Assembly (NCBI GenBank): GCA_045106985.1
Contig: JBGCFQ010000024.1
Coordinates: forward strand, 128,502-192,501
Length of the DNA stretch: 64,000 nucleotides
Reading direction: 5' to 3'
From: Pseudomonadales bacterium
Lineage (GTDB): Bacteria > Pseudomonadota > Gammaproteobacteria > Pseudomonadales > JAUIET01
Positions within the stretch are counted from its first letter, which is position 1. Each line of letters begins with the position of its first letter. Positions 2,469 to 12,360 of the stretch are shown here, piece by piece. Below the pieces are notes generated by a model, which was not told the origin of the DNA, did no database searches, and saw nothing but the letters and a program-made list of their open reading frames with translations. A program made the position numbers and the translations under genes.

Positions 2469-2858
2469 CTACTTTACCAGGCCAAAGGGAGTTTTAGCAG
2501 TGCTCGTGCTCTTATGCTCTGATGCACTTAAGTACTCAAAACTGGTGGTAGTCAACTTTGATTGTAGAAAATGATACAGCTCAGGTGTGTACTTTTTTTC
2601 GTAGTTCAAATTAAGTACTCGATTACCATAGTTTTCATCCAACGTGAGGCTGATGTGGCCTGGGGTCACAACGGCCTGACGAATACTGCTTTTCTGAATG
2701 CTGAACTGTCTCGCCATGGCGCTGCGCTGAAACTTTAGAACATTGCCATTAATCTTTAAGCTCTTAAAGGGGTTGCCAGGCATCATGCCTAGAAAGTACT
2801 CCACGACGAACAATAATATTAACAGGGCAATCGCAATTTGGATTTGGTCGGGCATCAC
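2469..2858 (-). CDS. hypothetical small membrane-anchored protein
   Basis: 129-aa ORF with a single N-terminal hydrophobic helix (IAIALLILLFVVEYFLGMM). I recognise no motif, and it has no competing ORF. Confidence 0.35.
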   Translation of the reverse strand: MMPDQIQIAIALLILLFVVEYFLGMMPGNPFKSLKINGNVLKFQRSAMARQFSIQKSSIRQAVVTPGHISLTLDENYGNRVLNLNYEKKYTPELYHFLQSKLTTTSFEYLSASEHKSTSTAKTPFGLVK

Positions 2859-3261: not shown

Positions 3262-4041
3262 CTAAGTTGCGTTTTGCGCGCCATAGATGGCCGGTATTTC
3301 GCCACCGCCATGAACTTCTATGCTGGTACCTGTTACAAAGCTGGACAGAGGTGAGGCAAGGTATAGGCAAGCCTTTCCTATGTCGGCCGGAACGGCCATT
3401 CGCTGCAGTGGAATAGTGCGTCCAACCGCATCAATTCCTTCCTGGTCGCCGTAATGCAGATGGCTTTGCTCAGTTTCTATCAAGCCCGCAGTTATCGCGT
3501 TAATACGTACCTTAGGCCCCCATTCAACGGCAAGTGACGTACAAAGGTTGATTAGTCCAGCTTTTGCAGCTCCATAGGCTGCTGTACCAGGCGACGGTCG
3601 AATAGCGCTTACGCTCGCTATGTTGATAATTGAGCCGCCTTCTGGCTGAGCTTGCATAACGGCATTGGCCGCTTGAGCAAAAGTAAATGGGGCAATCAGG
3701 TTTAACTTAACGATGGACTCGTTAAAGCGAGGTGATACGGTAGCTGAGTCGGCATGCGGTGTACCGCCGGCGTTGTTCACCAGTGCATCCAGCCGACCAA
3801 ACTTTTTCATCGTAAAGTCCACGCACGCTTGAATCGAATCAGGGTCTTTAACATCACATTCCTTAAACAGGGCGCTTTTACCATCGTAGGACGGCAGTGA
3901 GTCAGGCGCGCTGCGACTACAAACCACGACGTTTGCCCCAGCTTCGAGAAAAATTTCTGCTATCCCTTTGCCTACGCCCCTAGTACCTCCAGTGACAATT
4001 ACGACCTTATCAGTCATATCAATGCTGTTTAGAATGTTCAT
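3262..4041 (-). CDS. short-chain dehydrogenase/reductase (SDR) family oxidoreductase
   Basis: Contains 'VVIVTGGTRGVGKGIA' (TGxxxGxG), 'NNAG', and the catalytic 'YGAAKAG' (YxxxK). Length is 259 aa. Confidence 0.85.
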   Translation of the reverse strand: MNILNSIDMTDKVVIVTGGTRGVGKGIAEIFLEAGANVVVCSRSAPDSLPSYDGKSALFKECDVKDPDSIQACVDFTMKKFGRLDALVNNAGGTPHADSATVSPRFNESIVKLNLIAPFTFAQAANAVMQAQPEGGSIINIASVSAIRPSPGTAAYGAAKAGLINLCTSLAVEWGPKVRINAITAGLIETEQSHLHYGDQEGIDAVGRTIPLQRMAVPADIGKACLYLASPLSSFVTGTSIEVHGGGEIPAIYGAQNAT

Positions 4042-4259
4042 ATGGTGTGTTTACCGTTATCCATCAAATCGCCTGCAAAGGGTATTGAGGCTTGAAATTT
4101 TGTAGTCTGACCCCATTATAGATGTCTATTCGGTCATTAGACCAACCCCTGTGGGCTTGAAACAATTGATGCTCACCGATTACACTGCCCGCCGCTTTGG
4201 CGCTCTACTTTTTATTGAGTGTTTATCCGCACCTTGCGGCAATCACATGAGGTTCTTAC

Positions 4260-4934
4260 ATGACAGATTCATTACCAACTATCGCAATTCTCGGTGGCAC
4301 TGGCGCTCTCGGCACTGGTTTGGCCAGACGCTGGACCCAAGCCGGCTACAAGGTGATTATAGGTTCGCGTACAGAAGAGAAAGCTCAGGCCGCATTAGCA
4401 GATTTGGAAGAAGTAATGCTAGAGCGCGGCGCTTCAGCGAGTGCTGTGCAGGCGATGGAAAACCTTGCAGCAAGCGAAAAGGCTGACATAGTGGTGCTAA
4501 CCGTACCTTTCAGTCATCAACTTAGCACTTTGGATTACGTGAAGCCTGCGTTGCAAGGCAAAATTTTGATTGATGTAACCGTTCCTCTCGTTCCACCAAA
4601 AGTCGCAAGGGTGCAGTTGCCAGAATCAGGTTCGGCCGGTGCTGGTGCGCAAGCCGCTTTAGGAGAGGGTGTTCGTGTTGTGTCTGCGTTTCAGAATGTA
4701 GCAGCCCACCATTTGCAAGAAGGTCAGGGCATGGATTGTGACGTTCTGGTAACCGGCGACAACGTAGACGCGCGAAGCGAAGTAATCGCGCTCGTGGAAG
4801 CGGCGGGTATGCGAGGCTTTCACGCGGGGCCAATTGATAACGCAGCTGCCGCAGAGGCACTCACTAGCATTCTGATAAGCATAAACAAGCGCTACAAGTG
4901 CCACGCTGGTATACGTATTACGGGGTTGGAATAG
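4260..4934 (+). CDS. npdG: NADPH-dependent F420 reductase
   Basis: N-terminal 'IAILGGTGALGTGLARRWTQAGYKVIIGSR' dinucleotide fold. The 224-aa size, the family look and the position at the head of the cof/fbi genes all fit. Confidence 0.75.
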   Translation: MTDSLPTIAILGGTGALGTGLARRWTQAGYKVIIGSRTEEKAQAALADLEEVMLERGASASAVQAMENLAASEKADIVVLTVPFSHQLSTLDYVKPALQGKILIDVTVPLVPPKVARVQLPESGSAGAGAQAALGEGVRVVSAFQNVAAHHLQEGQGMDCDVLVTGDNVDARSEVIALVEAAGMRGFHAGPIDNAAAAEALTSILISINKRYKCHAGIRITGLE

Positions 4935-4985
4935 GCGCTTAGAAATAGCGCGCTCAGTCGTTCCACTAAATAGTTAGTTATCATT

Positions 4986-5765
4986 ATGGGCAAAAGCAGT
5001 CGGCGTTTGGAGTTAATTGCTCTCGATGGTTATCCCTTGGTAGAGCCGGGCGACAATGTCGCGGCGCAAATTATTCAAGCGTTGACCAGCAATGATCTGT
5101 CACTTGAAGCTGGTGATGTAGTTGCCATTGCGCAGAAAATTATCTCAAAGGCGGAAGACCGTTATTGCACGCTTAGCGACGTAGAACCCAATGAGGATGC
5201 AAAGACTCTAGCTAAGCAGGTTGATAAAGACCCGCGGCTTGTGCAATTAATTCTGGATGAGTCGAATGAAGTTGTACGAACTCGACCAGGTGTTCTGATC
5301 GTTGAGCACAGGCTGGGCTTGGTTCATGCGAATGCGGGAATCGATCAATCCAATATTCAAACGTCAGACGAACAGCCTCGTGCGTTGTTGCTGCCGCTTA
5401 ATCCTGACGCAAGTGCAAGAGAGCTGCAAAATCAACTTTTTACGGCGACAGGAAAAGACGTTTATGTACTCATCAACGACAGTGCAGGCCGTGCCTGGCG
5501 CAATGGCACCAGCGGAATCGCTATTGGCTCGGCGGGTTTCGAGACACTCGAGGACTTGATTGGCGGCTTTGACATGTTTGGCAATGAACTTCGAGTAACC
5601 ACGGTTGGTGTTGCCGACGAGTTAGCGGCAGCTGCGTCTTTTATGATGGGGCAAGCGGCTGAAGCGACGCCAGTAGTGTTGATTCGTGGAGCTCAGTTAA
5701 CAAGTAGCCAAACATCGGGAGCCCGCGACTTAGTGCGCGACAAGCAGCTTGATTTGTTTCGCTGA
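4986..5765 (+). CDS. cofE: coenzyme F420-0:L-glutamate ligase (stand-alone CofE, no FbiB C-terminal domain)
   Basis: 'LIALDGYPLVEPGDNVA...VAIAQKIISKAEDR...HANAGIDQSN...DSAGRAWRNG' matches the CofE/F420 ligase family pattern. It is only 259 aa. Confidence 0.85.
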   Translation: MGKSSRRLELIALDGYPLVEPGDNVAAQIIQALTSNDLSLEAGDVVAIAQKIISKAEDRYCTLSDVEPNEDAKTLAKQVDKDPRLVQLILDESNEVVRTRPGVLIVEHRLGLVHANAGIDQSNIQTSDEQPRALLLPLNPDASARELQNQLFTATGKDVYVLINDSAGRAWRNGTSGIAIGSAGFETLEDLIGGFDMFGNELRVTTVGVADELAAAASFMMGQAAEATPVVLIRGAQLTSSQTSGARDLVRDKQLDLFR

Positions 5766-5827
5766 GCAAATGGCCGTTCAATGGCTGAGGATATAAGTGA
5801 GTAAGTGTCGTGTTAAGTAGTAGCGGT

Positions 5828-6772
5828 ATGCAGGGTGTTTTAGCGCTCAGCGGAGGCGTGGGCGGAGCCAAGCTTGCAGCTGGTTTGGCCGCTGCTTTGC
5901 CCGCCGAATTACTTACAATTGTGGCCAATACCGGCGACGATTTTCAGCATTTTGGTTTTCATATCGCTCCCGATCTCGATAGTGTTATGTATGCGTTGGC
6001 AGGTGAAAATGACCGAAAGCGTGGCTGGGGGCTCGCCGACGAAAGTTGGCAATTTATGGAGGCTCTCGCAGCCGTTGGCGGTGAAACCTGGTTTCGCTTG
6101 GGTGACCGGGATTTGGCAACGCATGTGCAGCGTACGGCATTGCTGAACAGTGGCCTCGGTCTGGAGGCAGCCACACAGGGTTTATGTGAGCAGCTGGGCA
6201 TTCAGCACAGGCTTATTCCAATGACAGACCAGGCTGTAAGAACCATTGTTCAAACCAAAGAAGGCGATCTCGAATTTCAACAGTATTTTGTAGCCCACCA
6301 GTGTGAGCCCAAGGTAAAGGGCTTTTACTTCGACGGCATCGGCAAAGCGCTTCCCAACAAGGCTATTGGTGCTGATTTGCAAGCCGAACGCTACCGGGCT
6401 GTGATCATTTGTCCGTCAAACCCCTTTGTTAGCGTTGATCCTATTCTGCGCTTAGAAGGCGTGCAGCAGGCGCTAAGATCTTTCAGTGGTCCTCGCGTTG
6501 CTGTCTCACCGATTGTGGGTGGCAAAGCACTAAAGGGCCCCGCGGCAAAGATGATGAAAGAGCTATCTATGCCCAGCGACGCCTTGGGTGTGGCTCACTA
6601 TTACAAGGGGCTACTAAGTCATTTTGTAATTGATCATGTGGACGCGCATTTAACGCCGGCTATTGAAGAGCTGGGTTTAAAAGTGATCTGTACGAATAGT
6701 GTGATGCGCTCAATTGAAGATCAGCAGCAGCTGGCCATTGAAATATTGGAAGAGATAAACGGTGCTGGGTAA
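5828..6772 (+). CDS. cofD: 2-phospho-L-lactate (LPPG:FO) transferase
   Basis: 'VLALSGGVGGAKLAAGL...IVANTGDDFQHFGFHIAPDLDSVMYALAG' is the characteristic CofD N-terminus. I prefer the ATG at 5828; an alternative GTG lies at 5810. Confidence 0.9.
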   Translation: MQGVLALSGGVGGAKLAAGLAAALPAELLTIVANTGDDFQHFGFHIAPDLDSVMYALAGENDRKRGWGLADESWQFMEALAAVGGETWFRLGDRDLATHVQRTALLNSGLGLEAATQGLCEQLGIQHRLIPMTDQAVRTIVQTKEGDLEFQQYFVAHQCEPKVKGFYFDGIGKALPNKAIGADLQAERYRAVIICPSNPFVSVDPILRLEGVQQALRSFSGPRVAVSPIVGGKALKGPAAKMMKELSMPSDALGVAHYYKGLLSHFVIDHVDAHLTPAIEELGLKVICTNSVMRSIEDQQQLAIEILEEINGAG

Positions 6773-7412
6773 GGTGTGCGCAGTGGTGCCTTTTCGCTCC
6801 TTTTCCAGCGGTAAACAGCGTTTAAGTGCTGCTATGACCAACGAAAGCCGCAGCTTGTTTGTTGAAGCCATGCTAGAAGATACGCTGCGCGCCTTACTGG
6901 GCAGCACACAGCTCGATCGTGTACTTGTACTGAGCAACGACAAAGCAGCAGCAGCCCTGGCGCGTGAGCTTGGCGCAGTCTGCGTGGCCGAGCCAGCGGG
7001 GACGGCTGGCCTGAATGCTGTAGTGCAGGCGACGGCAAATGAATTGAGCCCCTTTTACGACAGCTTGTTAGTGGTACACGGTGATTTGCCACTTTTGCAG
7101 ACAGCAGAAGTAGATCAGCTGATAACCGCACATAAAGAGCTTAAGCAAGCCCCAGGACTTAGCATAGTGCCTGATCGTCATGGCCAGGGCAGCAATTGCG
7201 TTCTAGTGTCACCCCCGAATGCGCTACGCTTTCATTACGGTGCGGGAAGTTTGCCAAAACATCTGGCTTTCGCCAAACAGCACGGCATACTGTCACAGAC
7301 TGTAGAACTGACCGGTGCTGGATTGGATATCGATGTGCCGGATGATCTTGCTGCTCTGCGCGCGCATGAATATTTATCTCTTGCGGTTCGCGTTTCAGCC
7401 GTATTGGAGTAG
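6762..7412 (+). CDS. cofC: 2-phospho-L-lactate/PEP guanylyltransferase
   Basis: 'AVVPFRSFSSGKQRL' and 'VVHGDLPLL' are typical of CofC/FbiD. The GTG start overlaps the cofD stop (alternative GTG at 6774). Confidence 0.75.
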   Translation: MLGKVCAVVPFRSFSSGKQRLSAAMTNESRSLFVEAMLEDTLRALLGSTQLDRVLVLSNDKAAAALARELGAVCVAEPAGTAGLNAVVQATANELSPFYDSLLVVHGDLPLLQTAEVDQLITAHKELKQAPGLSIVPDRHGQGSNCVLVSPPNALRFHYGAGSLPKHLAFAKQHGILSQTVELTGAGLDIDVPDDLAALRAHEYLSLAVRVSAVLE

Positions 7413-7423
7413 TTGGAGTTTTT

Positions 7424-9964
7424 TTGGACGTTAAAAACGGTAGCAAACAACTGGCTCGGTTTTCGAGCCTTACGGATACAGATTGCATCGATGGTCTGAG
7501 CAATGATGTCGCGTTGCAGTTGGTGCAGGCCACGGATTACGACGCTTTGCTTGCGCGTGCTGCGTCATTACGTGACATGCAGTTTGGCAGCCTTGTTACC
7601 TACTCGCGCAAAGTGTTTATCCCTCTAACGTATCTATGTAGAGACGTTTGTCATTACTGCACCTTTGCCCAAACACCGAAAAAAATAGAACACGCCTACA
7701 TGCCGGTTGATGAGGTCATCGAACAGGTAAAGCGTGCCGAAAAACAGGGTTGCAAAGAAGCGCTGTTTACTCTGGGTGAAAAACCCGAGCTGCGTTACAA
7801 GGCGGCTAGAGACGCATTGCAGGAATTAGGTTATAGCAGCACGATAGAGTATCTCGCGGCAGTAGCTCAGCGAGTTAGAGATGAGACGACTGTTTTGCCG
7901 CACCTTAATCCTGGTTGTATGAGCACTGAGGAGCTGCAACTGCTGCGTCCCGTTGCCGCGTCAATGGGCATAATGCTGGAAAGCTCGGCCGATCGCTTAA
8001 GCGAAAAAGGCATGCCTCATTACGGGTCGCCCGATAAATTACCCGAAACACGTTTAGCAGCTATCGCCAGAGCGGGCGAAGCCCAAATTCCTTTTACAAC
8101 AGGCATATTGATTGGTATTGGTGAGAACCGAATTGAGCGAATTCAATCATTGTTAGATATTCGTCAATTGCACGGCCGATTCGGGCATATTCAAGAAGTT
8201 ATTATTCAGAACTTTCGCGCTAAGCCCGGTACTTTAATGCATGAGGCCCCGGAGCCAGATCTTGATGAGCTGCTGTGGACGATAGCAATGGCCCGATTGA
8301 TTTTTGGCCCAGAGATGAGCATTCAGGCTCCTCCAAATCTCAGCCCAGGTGTTTTGCCTCAGCTAGTGGCCGCCGGTATTAATGACTGGGGTGGCGTGTC
8401 GCCGGTTACGCCCGATTTTGTGAACCCGGAAGCGCCGTGGCCGCATCTCGACAAGCTGCGGAGTGAGACCGCTCAGGCTGGCAAGTTACTGCATGAGCGG
8501 CTTACGATCTACCCCGCATATGCTAAAGATGCCGAGCGCTGGTTGGACGCCGCCATGCGCGCGCCTGTGCTTCAACTCCTCGATGCCCAAGGATTACCGC
8601 GCACGGACGAATGGATGACCGGCGCTGCGAATGCCGAGCTTCCTGCTAACGATGTTGCCCTGTTGCAGAAATCAGACAGAGCGCATAGGTCACGGCAAGA
8701 TTCCACTGCACAGCTAGAAAACCTGGATATCGATACGCCTCAACTTCAGGTCAGTCAACAGCTAAGAGACATAGTAGCGACTGCCCGTGCAGGCAAGGTC
8801 TTGACCGAGCAGCAAATAGTGAGGTTGTTCGAAGCTCGAGGTGCTGAGTTTCAGTTTGTTACAGCTGAGGCCGATAAACTGCGTGCCGAGGTCGTTGGCG
8901 ATACCGTTAGTTATGTGGTTACCCGTAACATTAACTACACCAATATCTGTTATTTCAAATGCCAGTTTTGTGCCTTTTCGAAAGGTAAGCTCAGTGAGAA
9001 CCTAAGGGGGCGGCCTTATGACTTGAGCGAAGAAGAAATAGCGCGAAGGGTTAGCGAAGCCTGGGAGCGTGGCGCAACGGAAGTCTGCATGCAGGGTGGG
9101 ATACATCCGGAGTATACGGGTGCCAAATACCTTGATATCTGCCGAATAGTAAAGCAAGCCGCACCAGACATGCACATCCATGCCTTTTCGCCGCTTGAAG
9201 TTTGGCAAGGTGCTGCAACCCTGGGAATAAGTTCCAAGGAGTTCCTTGCTCAGCTCAAAGACGCTGGTTTGTCTACTTTGCCAGGTACGGCCGCTGAAAT
9301 ACTTGATGATGAAGTGCGCGCCATTATTTGCCCGGACAAAATCAATACTGCGCAGTGGTTGCAGCTAATTGAAGAAGCGCATGAGCTGGGTATGCGAACC
9401 ACTGCGACGATTATGTTCGGTCATGTAGATGGCTATCAACATTGGGCTAGGCATATGCTCCGTGTTCGGGAAGTACAAGAGCGCACTGGCGGGTTCACCG
9501 AGTTTGTTCCTCTCCCGTTCGTTGCGAGCGAAGCCCCGATGTATTTAAAGGGTAAGGCTCGCCGTGGGCCAACATTTAGAGAGTGCATTTTGATGCATGC
9601 CGTTGCACGTCTGGTTTTCAATGGCCAGATCGACAATATTCAGGCCTCTTGGGTCAAGCTGGGACATGACGGCGTGCAGCATTGCTTGAACGCGGGCGTC
9701 AATGATCTTGGCGGCACTTTGATGAACGAAACGATTACGCGTTCAGCTGGAGCCGATCACGGCCAAGAGACTGGCCCAGAGATGATGGAGTCTTTGATAA
9801 GATCGGCTGGTCGCGAACCGAGGTTGCGCAATACCTTGTACGACGATGCTGATTTGGAACGCCGAGCTGCGGCTTTCGTGGCTCCTGAACTTATTGCTGT
9901 CAGCAACACCACACCTGGCAAATCGGCTCGACTTCAAAAGCCTGAGCTGTTCCGCAATATTTAG
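7424..9964 (+). CDS. fbiC: bifunctional FO synthase (CofG+CofH fusion)
   Basis: Two radical-SAM cysteine triads, 'CRDVCHYCTF' and 'CYFKCQFCAF', sit in one 846-aa protein. The start codon is uncertain: a TTG at 7424, with no in-frame ATG nearby. Confidence 0.9.
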   Translation: MDVKNGSKQLARFSSLTDTDCIDGLSNDVALQLVQATDYDALLARAASLRDMQFGSLVTYSRKVFIPLTYLCRDVCHYCTFAQTPKKIEHAYMPVDEVIEQVKRAEKQGCKEALFTLGEKPELRYKAARDALQELGYSSTIEYLAAVAQRVRDETTVLPHLNPGCMSTEELQLLRPVAASMGIMLESSADRLSEKGMPHYGSPDKLPETRLAAIARAGEAQIPFTTGILIGIGENRIERIQSLLDIRQLHGRFGHIQEVIIQNFRAKPGTLMHEAPEPDLDELLWTIAMARLIFGPEMSIQAPPNLSPGVLPQLVAAGINDWGGVSPVTPDFVNPEAPWPHLDKLRSETAQAGKLLHERLTIYPAYAKDAERWLDAAMRAPVLQLLDAQGLPRTDEWMTGAANAELPANDVALLQKSDRAHRSRQDSTAQLENLDIDTPQLQVSQQLRDIVATARAGKVLTEQQIVRLFEARGAEFQFVTAEADKLRAEVVGDTVSYVVTRNINYTNICYFKCQFCAFSKGKLSENLRGRPYDLSEEEIARRVSEAWERGATEVCMQGGIHPEYTGAKYLDICRIVKQAAPDMHIHAFSPLEVWQGAATLGISSKEFLAQLKDAGLSTLPGTAAEILDDEVRAIICPDKINTAQWLQLIEEAHELGMRTTATIMFGHVDGYQHWARHMLRVREVQERTGGFTEFVPLPFVASEAPMYLKGKARRGPTFRECILMHAVARLVFNGQIDNIQASWVKLGHDGVQHCLNAGVNDLGGTLMNETITRSAGADHGQETGPEMMESLIRSAGREPRLRNTLYDDADLERRAAAFVAPELIAVSNTTPGKSARLQKPELFRNI

Positions 9965-10188
9965 AAATGTTCGCGTTCATCCGGTCAATTCTTTAGCTGA
10001 CTCTCAGACTCTGCACCATGCCCTTGTAAAAGCGCCCTCACGGCTTTGTCGGGCTAATAGTGCTCAATGTAGCTGATTACTCTCAATTCAGATTACCGGC
10101 AACACGATCAATAGAAACTCAGCGCCTGATCACGTAAGATTAACGGATAGTTAAGTTACACCGATTTGACCAAAGCGGAGATTTTCAA

Positions 10189-12360
10189 TTGATTGACAAG
10201 AATGGGCTGCAAGTTGCTGAAATACTTGCAAATTTCATTGAGCAAGAAGCGTTGCCAGACACAGCTGTGAGTGCGATCGATTTTTGGCAGGGCTTCGCAT
10301 CTATCGTTGAGAGTTTCGCTCCGGAGAATCGTGCACTACTGGCCAAGCGCGAAGACCTTCAACTTCAAATCGATTCCTGGCACCAGGCTAATGCTGCTTT
10401 GGAGTTTGATGCTGTCGAATACGACGCTTTTTTGCGTGATATTGGCTATTTATTGCCAGAGCCAGGTGACTTTACGATTGAAAAGACCAACGCCGATGCT
10501 GAGATTGCGACAATTGCTGGGCCGCAGCTTGTGGTTCCAATTTCGAATGCAAGGTTCTCACTAAACGCGGCCAATGCGCGCTGGGGAAGTTTGTACGATG
10601 CACTGTATGGGACTGATGTCATCGCTGAGGCAAATGGTGCTGACAAAACTGCGGGCTATAACCCAGTGCGTGGCGCGGAAGTAGTTGCCTACGGCCGTCA
10701 ATTTTTAGATGACAACTTCCCTTTGCAAACAGGTAGCCATACCGATGCTACGTCTTACCGCGTTGAAGCCGGTGCATTGGTAGTAGAGCAGGGCAAGTTT
10801 CAGTCGGGTTTGCAGCATGCCGCGGCTTTCGAGGGAACTCGTCACGATGAGGCGGGTGTGCTCGTTGCCGTACTGTTAAAGAAACACGGTTTGCACGTTG
10901 AAATTCAGATTGATCCGTCTTCTCCTATCGGTAAAACGGATTTGGCGGGCGTAAAAGATCTGCTGATGGAATCCGCTATTTCGAACATTCAGGATTGTGA
11001 AGATTCGGTGGCAGCGGTGGATGCAGCCGACAAAGTCGTTGTGTATCGAAACTGGCTAGGCTTAATGCGCGGAGACTTGCAAGAGAGTTTCAGTAAAGGC
11101 GGTAAAACGATGACTCGTTCGTTAAATGCCGACCGCGAGTACAAAGGCCCTGACGGCTCACCTTTTTCGATTCCTGGTCGTTGTTTATTGCTGATCCGAA
11201 ATGTCGGTCACCTGATGACAAATCCTGCGATCGTCGATGCGCAAGGTCATGAAATACCTGAAGGCATAATGGACGCTGTGGTGACGAGCATGATCGCCAA
11301 GCATGACCTTCTTGGAACTGGGCCGTTGCGCAATTCGCGCACGGGCAGTGTCTATATTGTAAAGCCAAAAATGCACGGGCCAGAAGAAGTAGCGTTTACC
11401 TGCCGACTTTTCTCCGCAGTAGAAGATTTACTTGATTTGCCACGCAATACTTTGAAAGTTGGCATTATGGATGAGGAGCGTCGTACCACGGTTAATCTCA
11501 AAGCCTGCATTTATGCTGCTCGAGAAAGAGTTATTTTTATCAACACAGGGTTTCTTGACCGAACGGGCGATGAGATTCACACATCAATGCACGCGGGGCC
11601 TATGGTTTGCAAGGGGCCAATGAAAGATCAGGCCTGGATAAAGGCCTACGAAGACTGGAATGTTGACGTCGGTCTGCGCTGTGGTTTGAGTGGGCAGGCG
11701 CAAATCGGTAAGGGTATGTGGGCCAAACCGGACGAAATGGCTGAAATGATGGAGGCCAAAATTGGTCATCCATTAGCAGGCGCTAACTGCGCCTGGGTGC
11801 CTTCGCCCACGGCGGCTACTTTGCACGTTATGCATTATCACGCCGTAAATGTTGCCGAGGTTCAATCCCAGCTGAAGACACGGACGCCAGCGAGCCTTAC
11901 TGATATTTTAACGATCCCTGTCTCAAGTCAAGTTGCCGATCTGGCTGAAGACGAGATTCTCCGAGAGCTGGATAACAATTCGCAGGGAATTTTAGGCTAC
12001 GTTGTACGTTGGGTTAATCATGGGGTGGGTTGCTCTAAGGTACCTGATATCAATAATGTTGGTTTGATGGAAGATCGCGCGACGCTTCGAATATCGAGCC
12101 AGCACATGGCTAATTGGTTATTGCATGGAATATGTTCTGCCGAACAAATTACGGCGTCTTTAGAACGCATGGCGGTTATCGTTGATGCGCAAAATGCCTC
12201 GGATCCGGAATATCAGCCAATGGCTCCAGACTTCACGAGCAGCATAGCGTTCCAGGCCGCCTCGGACCTTGTGTTTAAAGGTGGCGTGCAGCCCAGCGGT
12301 TATACAGAGCCTTTGCTGCATAATCGTCGGCTGCAGCTAAAGAGGGCCGAAGCGAGCTAG
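10189..12360 (+). CDS. glcB: malate synthase G
   Basis: 723 aa. The N-terminus '[18 protein letters not shown]' and the motif '[16 protein letters not shown]' are typical of GlcB. TTG start with a GGAG about 8 nt upstream. Confidence 0.95.

Follow-up and report, generated by a model that had tools for sequence, protein, structure and literature searches.

Which C3 acid do marine Gammaproteobacteria build into the side chain of coenzyme F420, and which of their enzymes use the finished cofactor? Both questions are raised by a five-gene locus, npdG(fno)-cofE-cofD-cofC-fbiC, lying on the plus strand at positions 4260-9964 of a 64-kb stretch of Pseudomonadales DNA. This stretch, hereafter the window, is C17:128502-192501 of a 71-contig genome of 4.75 Mb and 96.75% completeness. 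A first-pass annotation, made from the window, had recognised the cluster and left open both the side-chain precursor, whether 2-phospholactate (2-PL), phosphoenolpyruvate (PEP) or 3-phosphoglycerate (3-PG), and the physiological user of F420. From the sequence comparisons presented here it is very likely that the locus is a functional operon which makes F420 and keeps it reduced, and that it feeds many F420-type enzymes encoded elsewhere in the genome.

The operon and its distribution

Gene identities were judged by the curated cut-offs of NCBIfam models, matched over essentially their full length, with Pfam as a cross-check. By this measure all five genes are intact and score above their cut-offs (Table 1), contiguous on one strand and at exactly the coordinates originally given from the listing of open reading frames. 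NpdG is the only Fno above the TIGR01915 cut-off in the whole genome. CofE proved to be the stand-alone enzyme that had been described: PF01996 is its sole Pfam domain, the stand-alone model is matched end to end, and it lacks the C-terminal nitroreductase domain of FbiB, the FbiB-type model NF009810 yielding 206.4 bits, under its cut-off of 304. FbiC is indeed a fusion, in which the CofG half (TIGR03550) spans residues 59-380 and the CofH half (TIGR03551) residues 461-807, each half containing one of the two predicted radical S-adenosylmethionine (SAM) CxxxCxxC sites. The genes are closely packed, the intergenic gaps from npdG to fbiC being, in order, 51, 44, -11 and 11 nt. The reported overlap of cofD and cofC, 11 nt in extent, holds only if cofC starts at the GTG at 6762; an alternative in-frame GTG lies at 6774, 1 nt past the cofD stop codon (TAA, 6770-6772), and the two genes are tightly coupled whichever of these is the cofC start.

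Table 1. Coordinates in the window of the five operon genes, the FbiC radical-SAM motifs and the upstream features
Feature	Position	Strand	Evidence
npdG/fno, NADPH-dependent F420 reductase, 224 aa	4260-4934	+	TIGR01915, 198.9 bits (cut-off 149.8), model 3-220/220; PF03807
cofE, stand-alone F420-0:gamma-glutamyl ligase, 259 aa	4986-5765	+	TIGR01916, 267.7 bits (cut-off 180.65), model 2-244/244
cofD, transferase of 2-phospholactate/enolpyruvyl to FO, 320 aa	5810-6772	+	TIGR01819, 269.8 bits (cut-off 257.45)
cofC, guanylyltransferase activating the side-chain precursor, 216 aa	6762-7412	+	TIGR03552, 144.6 bits (cut-off 105)
fbiC, fused CofG+CofH FO synthase, 846 aa, TTG start	7424-9964	+	NF006687 (CofGH), 1142.3 bits (cut-off 1018)
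Radical-SAM motif CRDVCHYC, CofG half, aa 72-79	7637-7660	+	Regular expression on translation
Radical-SAM motif CYFKCQFC, CofH half, aa 509-516	8948-8971	+	Regular expression on translation
Classical short-chain dehydrogenase/reductase (SDR), 259 aa, divergent from npdG; possible accessory	3262-4041	-	NF005893, 386.2 bits (cut-off 255)
Intergenic region between divergent SDR and npdG, 218 bp; presumed promoter region	4042-4259		GAGG 8 nt upstream of npdG ATG

Taken together, the predicted activities would form a complete route. FbiC would convert tyrosine and 5-amino-6-ribitylaminouracil to the deazaflavin FO, CofC would activate a C3 acid with GTP, CofD would place the activated acid on FO to give F420-0, and the stand-alone CofE would add the gamma-glutamyl tail. 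Fno would then reduce F420 with NADPH, giving an electron flow from NADPH through Fno and F420H2 to many reductases, including at least 17 luciferase-like and 6 Ddn-like proteins.

The arrangement is widely shared. Related loci were taken as the best 80 of at least 593 FbiC relatives in GTDB species genomes, their FbiC proteins being 62-68% identical to that of the window, and their gene order was read by tblastn with the window proteins. The order npdG-cofE-cofD-cofC-fbiC is kept at approximately 58 of the 80, and the hosts are almost all marine Gammaproteobacteria of Pseudomonadales/Cellvibrionales-type families (among them Zhongshania, Spongiibacter, Oceanicoccus, Litorivivens, Halieaceae, Porticoccaceae, SAR86 and OM182), in keeping with the gammaproteobacterial setting proposed earlier. 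When 401 genomes from the organism's GTDB order were surveyed, cofC exceeded its curated cut-off in 139, spread over many families and including all six genomes sampled from the same genus and all three from the same family. Since cofC is so distributed and the gene order so often kept, the F420 operon is a common, vertically maintained trait of the group and not an oddity; the spread of cofC across the order is further reason to think that a working pathway is under selection. Previous work has found F420 genes to be variably present in Proteobacteria and abundant in marine metagenomes (PMC8498797), while the literature searched yielded nothing specific on F420 in Halieaceae, Spongiibacteraceae, SAR86 or OM60.

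Judged by its sequence, the locus has every feature of the Gram-negative fno-cofE-cofD-cofC-fbiC operon type, and it lacks both the diagnostic residue of the 3-PG variant and the reductase that defines the actinobacterial pathway. Gram-negative producers with a stand-alone CofE and fused FbiC include Paracoccus denitrificans and Oligotropha carboxidovorans (Ney et al. 2017, as cited in PMC8498797 and PMC8764529). As far as those citing papers describe them, the gene sets of these species agree with the present one in comprising Fno, stand-alone CofE, CofD, CofC and fused FbiC with no FbiB C-terminal domain, in the 2-PL/PEP-type signature of CofC, and in the question that they pose of how a saturated lactyl side chain comes about. 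The differences are the host, here a marine gammaproteobacterium of the GTDB order Pseudomonadales (Cellvibrionales-type), the compactness of the operon with its conserved divergent SDR gene, and the status of F420 production, which in the present organism is a prediction.

Predicted F420-dependent enzymes outside the window

Searches of the window for luciferase-like monooxygenases (LLMs), flavin/deazaflavin oxidoreductases of type A (FDOR-A) and PNPOx-type proteins gave zero matches, bearing out the earlier statement that it contains no F420 client beyond NpdG. The user of the cofactor looked absent because that reading covered only 64 kb. The genome-wide search for LLM, FDOR and Fno-type enzymes that the first-pass annotation had suggested returns at least 23 likely clients along with the single Fno, so that the question of the user of F420 is narrowed: 17 F420-family LLMs and six Ddn-like FDORs are encoded outside the window.

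The Bac_luciferase family (PF00296) has 33 matches genome-wide. Thirty of these proteins were scanned individually and 17 exceeded the curated cut-offs of F420-dependent LLM families, namely TIGR03559 and TIGR03619 (five each), TIGR03617 (three), TIGR03841 (two), and TIGR03564 and TIGR03857 (one each). The six proteins above the cut-off of PF04075, the family of Ddn-like F420H2-dependent reductases, all match TIGR00026 as well, and there are also about four PNPOx-fold matches to the Rv1155-type F420 family. An LLM of F420-glucose-6-phosphate dehydrogenase grade is absent genome-wide (best TIGR03554 E-value 1.3e-18), and no FrhB-type protein was found in the genome.

Some of the F420-type LLM and Ddn-like genes are grouped, as at C12:75477-81686, C17:97525-99112 and C9:66159-70298. 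At these three clusters, which were examined, the neighbouring genes encode acyl-CoA dehydrogenases, enoyl-CoA hydratase, SDRs, an AMP-ligase, amidohydrolase_2 and molybdopterin oxidoreductase proteins, together with an APH-type phosphotransferase and a DUF2889 protein. The clusters are thus candidate F420-dependent catabolic modules. The acyl-CoA dehydrogenase, enoyl-CoA hydratase, SDR and AMP-ligase neighbours suggest that, in the manner of Actinobacteria, the clients may serve to break down lipid-like substrates or complex organic compounds of other kinds.

By itself the operon would carry little weight, consisting as it does of standard genes, named by curated models, that about one in three related genomes possess. 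Its significance lies in the at least 23 predicted F420 enzymes, a repertoire on the actinobacterial scale, that would be fed by a single Fno in a marine heterotroph of cultivable type. This client set lends support to published opinion that F420 is widespread among marine bacteria (PMC8498797). The organism, or Zhongshania or Spongiibacter species with the same operon, would be convenient for studying how a saturated lactyl side chain arises without FbiB, and the organism and its relatives equally so for the role of F420 in marine carbon turnover.

The side-chain precursor and rival readings

In mycobacteria, FbiD, FbiA, FbiB and FbiC lead from PEP by way of dehydro-F420-0 to F420 (PMC6450877, PMC7253369). 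The present system resembles the mycobacterial one in its fused FbiC and in a Gly-type CofC pocket motif like that of Mycobacterium tuberculosis FbiD, and the genome resembles those of actinobacteria in its large LLM and Ddn-like repertoire. Unlike the mycobacterial pathway, it includes neither an FbiB C-terminal domain nor, by family cut-off, a homologue of FbiE grade. Five nitroreductase-family (PF00881) genes are present in the genome and none is of FbiB C-terminal grade: their TIGR03553 scores reach at most 46.4 bits, where the cut-off is 249.55, a threshold which may be too strict for a stand-alone FbiE. CofD, moreover, is less FbiA-like than archaeal-CofD-like: it matches the solved LPPG:FO 2-phospho-L-lactate transferase (PDB code 3c3d) over its full length with 195.5 bits and the solved phosphoenolpyruvate transferase (6uvx) over residues 11-276 with 158.6 bits. 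The closest solved relatives of CofE are likewise stand-alone CofE structures, at about 165 bits (164.7 for 2phn). With 3C3D and 2PHN as the best solved relatives of CofD and CofE, the system is akin to the archaeal CofC/CofD/CofE pathway from 2-phospho-L-lactate, in which no reductase step is needed; it departs from that pathway in its FO synthase, fused here and split into CofG and CofH there, and in that no bacterial source of 2-PL is known.

Because no reductase of FbiB C-terminal or FbiE grade was found, and because CofD and CofE are archaeal-like, the sequences lead us to lean weakly, with about even confidence, towards a reductase-free, archaeal-style route from 2-PL. Several considerations tell against it. 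That CofD is closer to its archaeal counterpart is a weak guide to the substrate it uses. CofB, the lactate kinase that would make 2-PL, has been identified in no organism (PMC8498797), and for this reason the supply of 2-PL cannot be traced in the genome. Finally, CofC assays conducted without the cognate CofD cannot tell 2-PL from PEP (PMC8764529). The choice between these two precursors is a question common to all Gram-negative F420 producers and not peculiar to this locus (PMC8764529, PMC8498797) and, as regards 2-PL and PEP, the first-pass view that the precursor is open still stands.

A PEP route is a tentative possibility falling somewhat short of an even chance. CofC and CofD would then make dehydro-F420-0 as in mycobacteria, and an enzyme other than an FbiB C-terminal domain or FbiE would reduce the enol ether, the candidates being the divergent SDR, nitroreductases of the type described below, or a housekeeping reductase. 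The lack of a known source of 2-PL in bacteria (PMC8498797) favours such a route, as do the (F/Y)GxxS motif of CofC, which is of the same type as in the PEP-using M. tuberculosis FbiD, and the preference for PEP of the cognate CofC/D of the Gram-negative Ca. Entotheonella (PMC8764529). The greater closeness of CofD to the archaeal LPPG transferase than to FbiA speaks against it. Further evidence on both sides comes from the two kinds of candidate reductase, the distribution of which was examined in a balanced sample of 30 cofC-positive and 30 cofC-negative genomes of the same GTDB order.

Orthologues of the SDR, 59-73% identical, immediately precede npdG, in opposite orientation, at 22 of the 80 related loci. 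In the balanced sample, orthologues (at least 57% identity) occur in 14 of the 30 cofC-positive and in two to three of the 30 cofC-negative genomes; in 12 of the 14, which represent about 10 GTDB families, the gene adjoins npdG and lies some 3.3 kb from cofC. This association favours the PEP route, but 16 of the 30 cofC-positive genomes have no such SDR, some genomes that lack cofC do have it, and it is a generic classical SDR, its solved relatives in a structure database search also being generic SDRs. The SDR was rejected on these grounds as an obligatory pathway member, and is better regarded as a neighbour that has kept its place beside npdG and that has, with low probability, a role of its own in the pathway. 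That an undescribed enzyme completes the F420 side chain in these bacteria, with this SDR as the best candidate, we consider very improbable; it would act either as a dehydro-F420-0 enoyl reductase outside the nitroreductase family or in the supply of the lactyl precursor. The npdG-adjacent SDR was seen only with CofC clusters of the Gly type discussed below.

The other candidates are two paralogous nitroreductase-family proteins of the genome, L132 (G000 C55:10773-11447) and L131 (C19:22613-23272), which share the N-terminal motif LSTTRAVRKRLD. Their homologues were found in six of the 30 cofC-positive genomes and in none of the 30 cofC-negative ones, a distribution that again favours the PEP route and from which L131 and L132 may be F420-linked enzymes. 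Weighing on the other side, 24 of the 30 cofC-positive genomes lack the nitroreductase, so that neither candidate is universal, and the nitroreductases score 30-46 bits against the FbiB C-terminal cut-off of 249.55, L132 having no FbiB match in the PDB. As a general component of the pathway, an FbiE-like dehydro-F420 reductase of this kind was therefore rejected, being neither FbiB-like at the level of family models nor, in the case of the L132 type, present beyond those six genomes.

There is very little likelihood of a silent operon, or of one whose main function is to provide FO (such as for a photolyase antenna), with the LLM and FDOR genes using FMN or other cofactors. The LLM and PNPOx superfamilies do hold many FMN enzymes, and one of the LLMs here is of the MsnO8 type, which does not use F420; the F420 use predicted for the 17 F420-family LLMs is an annotation-level assignment from family membership, a point which counts against the reading of these proteins as clients. 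But the genes cofC, cofD, cofE and fno are intact and, in hundreds of genomes, have been kept alongside fbiC, the cut-offs exceeded by the 17 LLMs are those of F420-specific families, and PF04075, with its six proteins above cut-off here, has none in 14 control genomes. The reading of the locus as a working F420 operon that supplies these enzymes remains much the more probable.

The case of 3-PG turns on CofC. A Ser or Thr at the position of S162 in Mycetohabitans rhizoxinica CofC is diagnostic for 3-PG use, with contributions from Met91, Cys95 and His145, and CofC proteins using 2-PL or PEP have Gly at the equivalent position (Hasan et al., PMC8764529). The window CofC was aligned with HMMER to the solved structures 6bwg, 7p97 and 2i5e. 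Its motif YGAGS aligns with FSGPS in 7P97 and FGPDS in M. tuberculosis FbiD, placing Gly at the S162-equivalent position and retaining the carboxylate-binding Ser, while the equivalents of Met91, Cys95 and His145 are Leu, Val and Gln, a 2-PL/PEP signature. Among 58 related CofC proteins the diagnostic residue is Gly in 32, Asp in 25 and Asn in one; Ser and Thr do not occur. The score of 60.5 bits against 7p97 is no better than the 65.1 bits obtained against M. tuberculosis FbiD. The locus does resemble Mycetohabitans rhizoxinica and Mycetohabitans sp. B3 (CofC 7P97) in its Gram-negative, proteobacterial host, its stand-alone CofE and its lack of a recognisable dehydro-F420 reductase, the background in which 3-PG use is argued to have evolved (PMC8764529), but it differs in lacking both Ser162 and the Met91, Cys95 and His145 context. 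With Gly at this position and no Ser or Thr in 58 relatives, production of 3PG-F420 by activation of 3-phosphoglycerate, as in Mycetohabitans (Paraburkholderia) rhizoxinica, is highly unlikely, and this part of the earlier three-way uncertainty is much reduced. Classical lactyl-F420 is the most probable product.

The phylogenetic placement of CofC that had been suggested as a check was also attempted. A maximum-likelihood tree of the 58 gammaproteobacterial CofC proteins and the three solved enzymes was obtained, in which the branches leading to the solved references are 2.6-3.8 substitutions per site long, making their placement unreliable; the tree was consequently not used to assign the window CofC to a substrate clade.

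CofC subtypes, gene fusions and flanking regions

A second CofC subtype is apparent in marine Gammaproteobacteria. Its motif is FDGxSF(K/R)PH, in which Asp, or in one case Asn, occupies the diagnostic position, and it forms its own clade. It is found at loci L011, L016, L019, L021, L024, L029, L031, L032, L036, L040, L046, L048, L050, L051, L057, L058, L060, L062-L064, L068, L071, L072, L074, L075 and L077. Genes flanking the clusters with this Asp-type CofC tend to encode LLMs, not the SDR.

In several relatives, cofC and fbiC apparently form one open frame of around 1000-1100 amino acids with the order CofC-CofG-CofH, an example being L069:9182-12436. Frames of approximately 1010-1113 amino acids at cofC matches were seen in G304, G214, G277, G104, G330, G245, G086 and others. 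No mention of this fused architecture was met in the F420 literature cited here. Two metagenome-assembled genomes labelled Verrucomicrobiaceae (L042 and L067) contain an operon of the gammaproteobacterial type, with FbiC 63-64% identical to that of the window and CofC proteins nested within the gammaproteobacterial clade, a pattern suggestive of lateral transfer or else of an error in binning.

A promoter scan of positions 3900-10300 found sigma-70-like sites at chance frequency only, in the SDR-npdG intergenic region as elsewhere, and no terminator was detected past fbiC in the same interval. No Rfam family was matched anywhere in the 64-kb window, this intergenic region included. Upstream, a 129-aa open reading frame (2469-2858, minus strand) without a Pfam or NCBIfam match lies between the SDR gene and a polysaccharide flippase-like gene at 817-2292. 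Downstream, the first gene past fbiC, after a gap of 224 nt, encodes malate synthase G (10189-12360, plus strand); this neighbour is not kept at related loci, where a uracil-DNA glycosylase gene is often found in its place.

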